Part shown: piece by piece, positions 6,645 through 9,228 of the stretch
Numbering within the stretch: the first letter of the stretch is position 1
How the letters are laid out: each line of letters begins with the position of its first letter
Source of the DNA: an uncultured Polyangiaceae bacterium
GTDB lineage: Bacteria > Myxococcota_A > Polyangia > Palsa-1104
Length of the DNA stretch: 9,228 nucleotides
Direction of reading: 5' to 3'
Assembly: GCA_964585665.1 (NCBI GenBank)
Contig: CAZPEY010000231.1
Location: 1 to 9,228 of the forward strand
Program-made: the position numbers and the translations under genes
The notes under the pieces: model-generated
Databases searched by the model: none
What the model saw: the letters and a program-made list of their open reading frames with translations, nothing else
Told to the model about the DNA's origin: nothing

Positions 6645-7454
6645 CTACGATGAAACGACGGGGTAGCGATCCTCGCGTAGCCCGACCGCTGGCGTCGCGA
6701 GCTGCGTGTCACTGGCGCGCACCACGATGACGTAGCGGCCGTCGACGACGAGCGGCTTGCCCTCCTTGGCGCTGAGCATGAACCACCCCTCCTGCTTGGT
6801 GGCAAACGGGCTCGCCGGATCCTCGCTCTTCGACGGCGCGAGGATCCGGTACTGCACGCGGTGGGTCGGCTTGCCCTGCACCACCTGCTGCTCGGCCGAC
6901 AGCAGCTCGCAGTGCAGCTCGACGCCGTGCTGCTCGATGCCGAGCGCGCGGAGGTACTGTCGCAGCGTCGCTACGCCGAGGCCGAAGCAGGTCGCGCCGA
7001 AGATGCCGTTGAGCAGCACGAACAGCAAGATCGCACTCGCCCAGCGCCCGCCGCTCGCCTCGACCGCCCAGTTCAGCGCGAAGCGACTCGGATCCCCCGG
7101 GTCGAAGCGAACCTCGGGCTCGGCGCCGCGATCGATCCCGCCCACCGTCCCGAACTCGAGCTTGCGGCTGACGATGCCCTTGGGGCCGTCGAACGAGACG
7201 TCGAGCGTGTAGGTGTGCAAGAACATCTGCGAGCTGTCGCGGCCGCGCACCTCGGCGGGGCTGCGCGCCGACCGCGGGTCGTTCCACACGCGCTCGTTGT
7301 CGAGGATGAGCAGCATCTCACCGACCTGCCACCAGGAGATGAGCCCGGTCAGCAGCGATCCGAGCACCAGCAGCCCGATGCCGCCCCAGAGTCGCTTCTG
7401 CTTGTAGCCGCTCGCGAGCCGCCACGGCAGCGGCGGCAGGACCTTGCCCGCCAT
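6645..7454 (-). CDS. Two-TM membrane protein with a DUF3592-like core plus an extra ~105-aa C-terminal beta-rich domain, 269 aa. Translationally coupled to the MVP homologue.
   Basis: ATG at 7454..7452 lies 1 nt after the MVP stop codon (TAG, 7458..7456). High GC3 and normal amino-acid composition, unlike the Arg-rich overlapping ORFs. TM1 is about aa 23-42 (WGGIGLLVLGSLLTGLISWW), preceded by KQKR. TM2 is about aa 138-162 (WASAILLFVLLNGIFGATCFGLGVA). The inter-TM segment ends in EPEVRFDPGDPSRFAL, which resembles the v.V.YdP.nP motif of DUF3592. That family assignment is from memory and uncertain. Confidence 0.75.
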   Translation of the reverse strand: MAGKVLPPLPWRLASGYKQKRLWGGIGLLVLGSLLTGLISWWQVGEMLLILDNERVWNDPRSARSPAEVRGRDSSQMFLHTYTLDVSFDGPKGIVSRKLEFGTVGGIDRGAEPEVRFDPGDPSRFALNWAVEASGGRWASAILLFVLLNGIFGATCFGLGVATLRQYLRALGIEQHGVELHCELLSAEQQVVQGKPTHRVQYRILAPSKSEDPASPFATKQEGWFMLSAKEGKPLVVDGRYVIVVRASDTQLATPAVGLREDRYPVVSS

Positions 7455-7455
7455 C

Positions 7456-9228
7456 CTACTGCCCGTTGGTCGGCGCCGGCTTGTCGGCGAACTTCTCGAC
7501 GAGCGCGCGCACCGTCGGCATGACCGGCGTACCGCCCAGCACCTCGGTGAGGATCGTGCCGACGTCCTTGCCCTTGAACAGGGTCACCAGGTTCATGTTG
7601 TTGGCGACCTCGGACAGCAGCACCTTGTCCCCGAGCGCGGTCATCGCCTCGATCAGGCCACGCTGCACCGCCTGGCGCTCCGCGACCGTCGCGGCGGACT
7701 GCGCCGCGATGAGCTCGAGCTCGAGCTTGCGCAGCGCCGACGTGCGCTGCAGCTCGGCGACCGTCAGCTCTTGCTGCGCCTTGCTGCGCGCCGAGGCGTC
7801 CTTCTGCAGGATGTCCCACTCCGCCGTCTTGGCCTCCGTTTCCCGGAGGATGCGGCTGCGCAGCGCCTCGGCCTCGCGGTCGAGCTGCAGCGTCTGCCGC
7901 TCGCGCAAGACCTGCTCCTGGTTCTTGGCCTCGTGGAGCTGCGCCTCATGCTCGAGGCGGCGCGCCAGCTCGCGCAGCTTGAACTGCCGCTCCTTCTCCT
8001 CGAACTCGAGCTGGTGGCGCTGCCGCTCGAGATCGGAGCGGAGCTGCAGCGACGCGAGCTGCTCTTGCGCCTGGCGATCGCCGATCTGCAAGGTGACCGA
8101 CTGCGCCTGCACGCGGTGGAACAGCTCGGCAATCTCGCGATCCTCGATCGTCGAGGAGAGCACCTCGACCTCGGTGACGTGCGCGCCGTTCTCGTTGAAC
8201 ACGCGGCCGGGCCGCTGCCCGTCTGGCGTCCGCTCACCGAGGATGGTGTCGCGCACGAGGGTCGCGATCTGCGGCCACAGCGCGGTCAGCGGCACGGTGC
8301 GGCAGCGACTGCGGATGAGCGAGCGCAGGTGCTCGCAGATCACCTGGATGTAGTTCTCGTGATTGAACCAGCGATCCTTCATCTCCTTCTTGAAGGTGAT
8401 CGAGTACGAGACGCGGATCGTGATGCGCACGAAATCAGACGTCTCGATGGGGATGATGTCGCTGACCCGATTGCCGACGGTGCGCAGAAAGCAGGTCCGC
8501 AGCGGGGAGTCGTCGCTCTTGGGCGTCCCCGTTGACAGAGACAGCGCGACCAGCCCCTCTTCGTAACCGAGCAGCTCGACGCAAGGCCCCTCGATCACAC
8601 GCTGCCCGTCGGCGGACGTCGCCAGCACCGCGGTGTTGTGCGGCACGGTCAGCGACAGCGCCCACGGCGTCGTCACGCCATCGGCCGAGTACTTGTGCGG
8701 CTCGTTGAAGGCGATCCAGAGGTTCCACGAGTCGGCGGTCACCGAGCGCGTGATCTGCACCTCCTTGCGCGGGTCGACGAGGTACGACTGCTTGCCGCGC
8801 ACCAGGCGCACTTCGCCCGTCGCCAGATCGCGGACGTAGATGCCCGACTTCTGATCGATGCCGATCGCCTCGATGAAGACGCGCGAGTGGTCGTTGCCAA
8901 CCACGGCCTCGCCGGTCTCCGGCGAGAGCACCTCGATCTCGTTGAACGGGAAGAAGAACGTCGAGACGCCAGTGAGCAGGAGCTCGTCGCCTGGGTGATA
9001 CTGATCCTTGTCGAGCGCGACGCCGCGCGGCAGCTTGCCGCCGAGCTCGGTCTTGCTGATCGGCGCGATGATGCGCAGCCACAGCGCACGCTGCGGCAGG
9101 AGCTCGTACGCGTCGTAGATGCGGCCGCGCGAGCCCTTGACCATGAACTGATCGTAGGGACCAGGGAAGACGCGGGCCGGGCCGACCTTGATCTCCCGCT
9201 TGCCGTCGGCGTCGATGATGACGCAGTA
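7456..9228 (-). CDS. mvp: Major vault protein (MVP) homologue, 5'-truncated by the right window edge. At least 590 aa are visible, covering the last MVP repeat domains, the SPFH-like shoulder, the cap-helix coiled coil and the cap-ring region.
   Basis: The reading frame stays open upstream of the tracked Met (9144) to base 9228: [32 protein letters not shown]... There is a collinear by-eye match to human MVP as I remember it. YCVIIDA ~ [24 protein letters not shown] ~ [25 protein letters not shown] ~ [17 protein letters not shown] ~ [32 protein letters not shown] ~ [63 protein letters not shown] ~ [38 protein letters not shown]. About 155 aa of E/Q/R/L/A coiled coil (nt ~7654..8124) sits where the cap-helix lies. 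[28 protein letters not shown] ~ [29 protein letters not shown]. Stop is TAG at 7458..7456. Confidence 0.88.
   Translation of the reverse strand, partial: [590 protein letters not shown]

Follow-up and report, generated by a model that had tools for sequence, protein, structure and literature searches.

Results

Gene pair at the end of the window

The DNA analysed here, called the window, is a stretch of 9,228 nucleotides (nt) with a G+C content of 69% from an uncultured Polyangiaceae bacterium (contig CAZPEY010000231.1). Its last part holds, on the minus strand, the 3' portion of a gene for a major vault protein (MVP) homologue and, directly downstream, a gene for a 269-residue protein with two transmembrane (TM) helices, which is related to the DUF3592 family (Table 1). 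In an earlier note on this DNA the smaller protein had been proposed as a possible tether or dedicated membrane partner of a vault-like particle. In our study the pair has been analysed for its junction, family relations, predicted structure and occurrence at other bacterial MVP loci, and the pairing appears to be confined to one narrow clade.

The identity of the upstream gene is indicated by its Pfam matches. MVP_shoulder (PF11978) was matched at 4.7e-20 (72 bits), and Vault_3 (2.6e-06, 27.9 bits against a cutoff of 28.8) and Vault_4 (4.4e-04, 20.8 bits against a cutoff of 22.9) stayed just below their cutoffs. The translation also has a long heptad-like charged helix region. A total of 403 homologues of the fragment were found; the best 120 of them are mostly 900-980 residues long and cover 98-100% of the fragment in the alignment, with 62-73% identity. 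Among the relatives, several bear the name 'major vault protein' or belong to Polyangiaceae, Polyangium, Byssovorax or Minicystis rosea; the M. rosea protein A7982_03815 is 70% identical to the window MVP. The naming of this gene as an MVP homologue in the earlier note is therefore well founded, and the complete protein is expected to have about 950 residues. By sequence it has the shoulder, the repeat domains (just below cutoff) and the putative C-terminal coiled-coil that mark an MVP. The full-length homologues P0004 and P0023 carry a Pro/Ala-rich low-complexity insert of about 100 residues between the N-terminal conserved region and the part covered by the window.

The minus-strand sequence that spans the junction reads ...ACC AAC GGG CAG TAG G ATG GCG GGC AAG..., with the stop codon of the MVP-like gene at 7458..7456 and the start codon of the 269-residue open reading frame (ORF) at 7454..7452, exactly as had been noted before. 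A consensus scan of 6400..7900 gave no promoter-like or terminator-like site, which is weak evidence on co-transcription; along with the shared strand and the 1-nt spacer it agrees with the operon-type arrangement claimed earlier. Most likely, both proteins are made from one mRNA. No clear Shine-Dalgarno sequence precedes the second gene in the window, and here and in the related locus L002 the ribosomes that finish MVP probably go on to translate this gene. The two genes are separated by 1 nt in the window, by 0 nt in L002, by 22 nt in L001 and by 39 nt in L066, so the tight spacing of the junction is not conserved among the MVP-linked copies.

The 269-residue ORF is a real gene

Many long shadow ORFs arise in high-GC DNA, and four of them overlap the region of the 269-residue ORF, which could thus be suspected to be a chance open frame and no gene at all. 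The chance of this is negligible. The G+C fractions at the three codon positions of the ORF (0.68/0.47/0.93) are like those of the MVP gene (0.67/0.41/0.94), and the overlapping shadow ORFs are without such a pattern. In comparison with the 92%-identical copy in L002 there are about 50 synonymous and 29 non-synonymous differences, which gives a ratio of non-synonymous to synonymous substitution rates (dN/dS, omega) of 0.165 for the protein. Moreover, 245 clusters of homologues exist, the AlphaFold2 (AF2) model has a mean predicted local distance difference test score (pLDDT) of 96, and the identical protein has been assembled in four independent sequencing runs. These observations exclude an artefact. 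The start codon is supported as well, since P0001, P0124 and other homologues share the Met at which the motif M-A-x-K-(V/L)-L-P-P-x-P-W opens.

Relationship to the DUF3592 family

The 269-residue protein found no match in direct scans of Pfam, NCBIfam, PADLOC and PHROGs, DUF3592 included (E<=0.1 for Pfam and NCBIfam). Word-seeded searches yielded two relatives from the single sequence and four from a profile, whereas an exhaustive HMMER search over 1.84 billion representatives yielded 245 clusters at E<=1e-3, 129 of them at E<=1e-10. Most of these clusters have 270-295 residues and match end to end.

Weak matches to DUF3592 (PF12158) were found for 33 of 90 family members at E<=1, the best at 1e-06, and they map to the beta domain between the two TM helices. 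All nine relatives that were examined individually scored below the gathering threshold, and the window protein likewise does not reach the gathering score of 25.3 bits. In a Foldseek search of BFVD the model was matched to proteins of Yasminevirus and Megaviridae named 'DUF3592 domain-containing protein' with a probability of 1.00 and E values of 3e-4 to 8e-4, the TM-scores to these giant-virus proteins being low (0.22-0.26). In the PDB, neither Foldseek nor a profile search of the sequences gave a meaningful relative. The label 'DUF3592-like' used in the earlier note thus holds at the level of family and fold, and fails for the window protein itself as far as a Pfam match is concerned. From sequence and model, the protein is a divergent DUF3592 relative to which a C-terminal beta domain of about 100 residues and a tail with the motif LPPxPW have been added.

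As a by-product, a well-defined family of about 245 clusters has been delineated which is unannotated in Pfam and combines a DUF3592 core with a C-terminal domain, with a confident model and no solved relative. Variants occur in it. P0143 has two full TM-beta-TM-beta modules fused in one protein of 580 residues, and P0166, P0173 and P0224 have an extra membrane-anchored region of about 230 residues at the N-terminus.

Predicted architecture and topology

Kyte-Doolittle hydropathy gave two TM segments, and the AF2 model based on an alignment of 90 sequences (pLDDT 96.1, predicted TM-score 0.85) consists of a helix, a beta domain, a further helix and a second beta domain (residues 177-247), with the boundaries given in Table 1. 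It supersedes an earlier run with three sequences, which was poor (pLDDT 58). The motif of the N-terminal tail is found family-wide, with P7 conserved in 77% of the members and P10 in 83%, and the first beta domain contains the conserved block RFALNWAVEASGxRWAS.

In the 90 members of the family, the N-terminal flank of TM1 carries a net charge of +3.1, its C-terminal flank -1.0 and the C-terminal flank of TM2 +1.7. Because of this family-wide positive-inside bias, a topology with both termini in the cytoplasm is supported, in which the DUF3592 domain would be periplasmic and the C-terminal domain cytoplasmic. The two TM helices and the cytoplasmic C-terminal beta domain, both of which had been predicted from the window alone, are supported by hydropathy, by the strands that follow TM2 in the model and by the charges. 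The possibility that the C-terminal domain is a second DUF3592 domain derived by internal duplication found no support, as hhalign gave a probability of only 0.6% against the first beta domain.

Occurrence of the pairing at bacterial MVP loci

A scan with an MVP alignment provided 55 metagenomic MVP loci, to which the Minicystis rosea locus was added; a scan of genome contigs with the single MVP fragment had matched M. rosea only (CP016211.1, L003). The flank tests were based on 34 MVP loci with at least 900 nt past the MVP stop, and the flanks extended up to 5-6 kb on each side. A member of the membrane-protein family was present in the flanks of none of these other bacterial MVP loci (0/34), including loci with 70-73% MVP identity. 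The tblastn search of the 269-residue protein against the MVP loci returned nothing below E=0.1 except two known relatives, and the hidden Markov model of the family, applied to all ORFs of at least 70 residues in all MVP loci, matched only the window, L001 and L002.

All-against-all clustering of the flank ORFs gave no shared neighbour family except MVP, its shadow ORFs and a generic Ser/Thr kinase family, and bacterial MVP genes in the sampled loci are without any conserved neighbour. The genes found after MVP elsewhere are varied and include an alpha/beta hydrolase (L005), a metallophosphoesterase (L025), a hybrid histidine kinase (L019) and unknowns, and in L004, L008, L010, L012, L020 and L033 the gene after MVP is convergent. 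An oligopeptide transporter of the OPT family overlaps the MVP stop by 4 nt in L003 (7818-9674, M. rosea CP016211.1) and L009 (6779-8677). The two transporters are 78% identical and the overlap is limited to these two loci; here again an integral membrane protein is tightly coupled to MVP in a lineage-specific way.

Members of the family linked to MVP were found only in the window, in its copies at L059-62, and in L002, L001 and L066. The identical window copies L059, L060 and L062 have an upstream gene, which in L059 matches the MVP shoulder. In L002 the membrane protein is 92% identical to that of the window, with MVP upstream. The protein of L001 (P0002) is 45% identical, with an MVP C-terminus lying 22 nt upstream, and that of L066 (P0124, 289 residues) is 42% identical, with an MVP fragment of 879 residues lying 39 nt upstream. 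Since the L066 MVP is 90% identical to the window MVP and every other MVP found is at most 73% identical, the linked copies amount to one narrow clade (MVP about 90% identical to that of the window) and, by this comparison, to a single evolutionary event.

Eight family members that were examined do not lie next to MVP: P0123 (L074), P0125 (L067-70), P0126 (L071), P0127 (L072), P0129 (L075/76), P0131 (L073), P0220 (L064/65) and P0272 (L063). Members at 30-37% identity to the window protein adjoin unrelated genes. P0127 (30% identical; L072 1365-2201) lies 46 nt downstream of a same-strand Hsp70/DnaK-like gene (L072 2-1318). P0123 (L074 528-1388), which is 79% identical to the MVP-linked P0002, follows 18 nt after an unannotated non-MVP ORF (3-509) on a contig too short to show the genes farther upstream.

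Conservation of the gene neighbourhood had been named in the earlier note as a check on the membrane-partner idea, with a lack of conservation as a refuting result, and the outcome speaks against that idea: no other MVP locus carries a family member, and most members are not beside MVP. From the sampled loci, the pairing is not general among MVP-encoding bacteria, the protein does not qualify as a conserved accessory of vaults, and its reading as a dedicated partner of a vault-like particle is not supported.

Rates of evolution within the pair

For the genome pair of the window and L002, omega was compared by domain and was 0.025 for the first beta domain, 0.156 for the C-terminal domain, 0.165 for the whole protein and 0.018 for the MVP C-terminus. 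The dN of the C-terminal beta domain (0.084) is about 20 times that of the MVP C-terminus (0.004). Between lineages, the DUF3592 domain predicted as periplasmic is 46-59% identical and the C-terminal domain predicted as cytoplasmic 34-38%. The strongest constraint in the protein is therefore on the predicted periplasmic domain, and the C-terminal domain is among its least conserved parts.

Between the window and L066, identity is 90% for MVP, 71% for a neighbour that resembles radical S-adenosylmethionine (SAM) proteins and 42% for the membrane protein in the corresponding position. L066 also has a second family copy at 3562-4065 (+), 12 nt after P0124; it is truncated to TM-beta-TM (167 residues) and 36% identical to the window protein, and the MVP 3' flank in this clade is in L066 a small tandem array. 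As this truncated paralog directly follows the first copy, hidden paralogy in a dynamic locus would be an alternative to fast evolution of the membrane protein. Both run counter to the expectation for a tight, conserved interface with an extremely conserved shell, and a looser or rapidly co-adapting contact would still be compatible.

Other genes in the window

The nearest neighbour of the pair is a Ser/Thr kinase gene with a tetratricopeptide repeat (TPR) array, which converges on the membrane-protein gene with the two stop codons 24 nt apart; a PP2C phosphatase gene lies near it. A kinase-type gene is likewise convergent in L002 and L059 and is not at that position in L066. PADLOC matches of the kinase are generic kinase-domain matches, and a reading as a defence system was not adopted.

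The radical-SAM-like ORF has no Pfam match and contains the motif CRVGCEFC (CX3CX2C). Its 71%-identical homologue in L066 (4031-4888, -) is convergent with the MVP/DUF3592 pair, and by sequence this ORF is a conserved neighbour inside the clade that has the pair. The remaining plus-strand genes form a row with no visible relation to the pair.

Table 1. Features of the window, in order of the gene pair, its parts and the neighbouring genes
Feature	Position	Strand	Basis or remark
Gene junction TAG-G-ATG	7452..7458	-	Intercistronic spacer 1 nt, read directly from sequence
MVP-like gene, 3' part (590 codons + stop)	7456..9228	-	Frame open 9228 to 7459, runs off window end
Two-TM membrane protein gene, 269 residues, divergent DUF3592-related family	6645..7454	-	ORF listing; stop TAG 6647..6645
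N-terminal tail, residues 1-21, predicted cytoplasmic	7392..7454	-	Motif LPPxPW; 5 K/R and 0 D/E
TM helix 1, residues ~22-44	7323..7391	-	Hydropathy; AF2 helix 15-58
Beta domain 1, residues ~60-130, DUF3592-like core, predicted periplasmic	7065..7277	-	AF2 strands 63-127; PF12158 matches of relatives map there
TM helix 2, residues ~139-163	6966..7040	-	Hydropathy; AF2 helix 134-176
C-terminal beta domain, residues ~177-269, predicted cytoplasmic	6648..6926	-	AF2 strands 177-192, 195-206, 221-228, 241-247
Ser/Thr kinase, 912 residues	3882-6620	+	TPR_12/TPR_10 array
Radical-SAM-like ORF, 305 residues	2907-3824	+	CX3CX2C motif
PP2C phosphatase gene	2106-2837	-	
Plus-strand row of three genes	137-2099	+	
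TPR protein	137-559	+	
Sel1-repeat protein	571-1383	+	
Permuted-papain C92 amidase	1332-2099	+	N-terminal TM

Discussion

With the gene, its architecture, family, junction and distribution established as above, we consider it likely that the 269-residue protein is a genuine DUF3592-family inner-membrane protein encoded in a clade-specific operon with MVP, probably of single origin, and no conserved accessory of vaults. Here and in the closest relatives of this organism, the gene would be co-transcribed with MVP; for the window and L002, which combine a spacer of 0-1 nt with the lack of a good Shine-Dalgarno sequence, termination-reinitiation would be the mode of its translation. The product would insert with both termini inside, the order being a Pro-rich cytoplasmic tail, TM1, a periplasmic DUF3592-type domain, TM2 and a cytoplasmic beta domain. 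Its main work may be done at the membrane or in the periplasm through the conserved DUF3592 domain, possibly as an accessory or adaptor subunit, as is suspected for other DUF3592 proteins. A primary job at this place is suggested because the strongest constraint falls on the periplasmic domain and not on the one that would face MVP. The link to MVP would then be one of co-expression which has arisen once in the clade, and the membrane protein probably functions independently of MVP, as judged from the sequence comparisons.

Some of our observations weigh against this interpretation. The DUF3592-like gene stays directly downstream of MVP in three lineages in spite of divergence to 42-45%, and the pair persists while its downstream neighbourhood changes (the kinase is not always there, and L066 has a further paralog); this persistence could reflect selection for co-expression. 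The sample of genomic contexts from the wider family is also small (nine members), and many of the contigs are short. Finally, a local role as a tether is biologically plausible by analogy, because MVP is a cage protein of the SPFH fold, canonical SPFH proteins are membrane-bound, often with operon-encoded membrane partners, and eukaryotic vaults have been seen on membranes.

Such a clade-specific tether would bind the shoulder/cap-helix region of MVP through the C-terminal beta domain or the Pro-rich tail and anchor an MVP assembly at the inner membrane. In function it would be analogous to NfeD, the partner of SPFH proteins in bacteria, and by translational coupling the two proteins would be made together. 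We regard the tether as unlikely. In its favour are the operon arrangement with spacers of 0-39 nt, kept in three divergent lineages, and the predicted topology, by which a beta domain of about 105 residues would lie in the cytoplasm. The shoulder of MVP resembles SPFH proteins, and in eukaryotes vaults were found in 2026 on endoplasmic reticulum and nuclear membranes, an association in situ for which neither a membrane motif nor a receptor is known (PMC13100048); no partner has been described for bacterial MVP (10.1101/872010). However, none of the 34 other MVP loci has a family member, even at 70-73% MVP identity, and most of the family is unlinked to MVP. The domain proposed to face MVP has the roughly 20-fold higher dN given above, and its identity is no more than 38% between lineages that share 90% identity in MVP. 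The N-terminal motif is not specific to MVP, because it is family-wide. Neither NfeD nor any other Pfam family was matched, and the PDB offered no match in fold or sequence. Synteny at this divergence is moreover expected by descent alone, because the radical-SAM-like neighbour has been retained too. The proposal that a DUF3592-type inner-membrane protein was recruited in one Polyangiaceae-like lineage as an anchor of MVP assemblies, or as an NfeD-like partner, acting through its cytoplasmic C-terminal beta domain at the shoulder or cap, appears quite improbable to us. If it were true, a membrane receptor would be named for the first time for an MVP cage of any kind, and the membrane binding of eukaryotic vaults, recently observed but unexplained, would gain a tractable model in bacteria.

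The adjacency of the two genes may also be neutral. The MVP 3' flank would then be a dynamic spot where DUF3592-like paralogs are duplicated, lost and replaced, and the gene would be read through from the MVP promoter with no functional relation to MVP. The two tandem family genes of L066 (P0124 and the truncated copy) fit this account, as do the positional 'orthologues', whose 42% identity, against 90% for MVP and 71% for the next neighbour, is compatible with hidden paralogy. The kinase gene that is present or absent at the same spot also agrees with it, and so does P0123, which stands behind a different gene in spite of its close similarity to the MVP-linked P0002. On the other side, the very tight junction (0-1 nt) of the window and L002 points to an integrated operon more than to a recent insertion, and purifying selection acts across the whole ORF. 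Neutral adjacency largely overlaps with the clade-specific operon favoured here and differs from it only in denying a benefit of co-expression; taken in this strict form it has, in our judgement, rather little likelihood.

The function of vaults has long been sought, and the MVP homologues of bacteria have hardly been studied. A genuine, genetically linked bacterial membrane partner would give a handle on the question of how vaults bind membranes. The comparative evidence makes the link local to one narrow clade; it would therefore be a lineage-specific elaboration at best, and the gene is most likely only a co-expressed neighbour.

Comparison with known systems

The window protein shares with DUF3592 (PF12158) the order of a TM helix, a beta domain of about 70-90 residues and a second TM helix, as seen in hydropathy and in the AF2 model. 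It differs in the C-terminal beta domain of about 100 residues after TM2 and the N-terminal LPPxPW tail that its family adds, in lying below every Pfam threshold and in Foldseek TM-scores of only 0.2-0.3. Among the members of DUF3592, the mycobacterial ML2271 has been predicted as a cofactor of a membrane enzyme (10.64898/2026.07.15.738315), and a streptococcal member has merely been mentioned as lying next to LXG toxins (PMC12482557).

Bacterial MVP homologues have already been reported from Myxococcota, Cytophagales and Oscillatoriales (10.1101/872010), and the upstream gene of the window belongs among them. For these homologues no assembly, partner or function has been described, and the window contributes only a local gene neighbour. 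A membrane partner of non-eukaryotic MVP homologues is mentioned neither in the bacterial preprint (10.1101/872010) nor in the phage preprint (10.1101/2023.11.10.566534), nor in other literature retrieved.

With the eukaryotic vault components vPARP/PARP4, TEP1 and vault RNA, the membrane protein would share the role of a component other than the MVP shell only if the tether idea were true. To our knowledge, none of these three is a membrane protein. They are conserved across vault-bearing eukaryotes, unlike the membrane gene of the window. As had been stated earlier, none of them was detected in the window, where Pfam was run on all ORFs and no Rfam family reached its gathering score.

The operons of SPFH and NfeD proteins (stomatin/HflK/C-type cages, PF01957) resemble the pair by analogy, in that a gene for an SPFH-fold cage is followed by one for a small membrane protein with a soluble beta domain. 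The C-terminal OB-fold of NfeD was not found in the 269-residue protein, as judged from Pfam, from the Foldseek matches in the PDB and from PDB sequence relatives. The NfeD-SPFH pairing is widespread, whereas the pairing of MVP with the DUF3592-related protein in the window is confined to one narrow clade.

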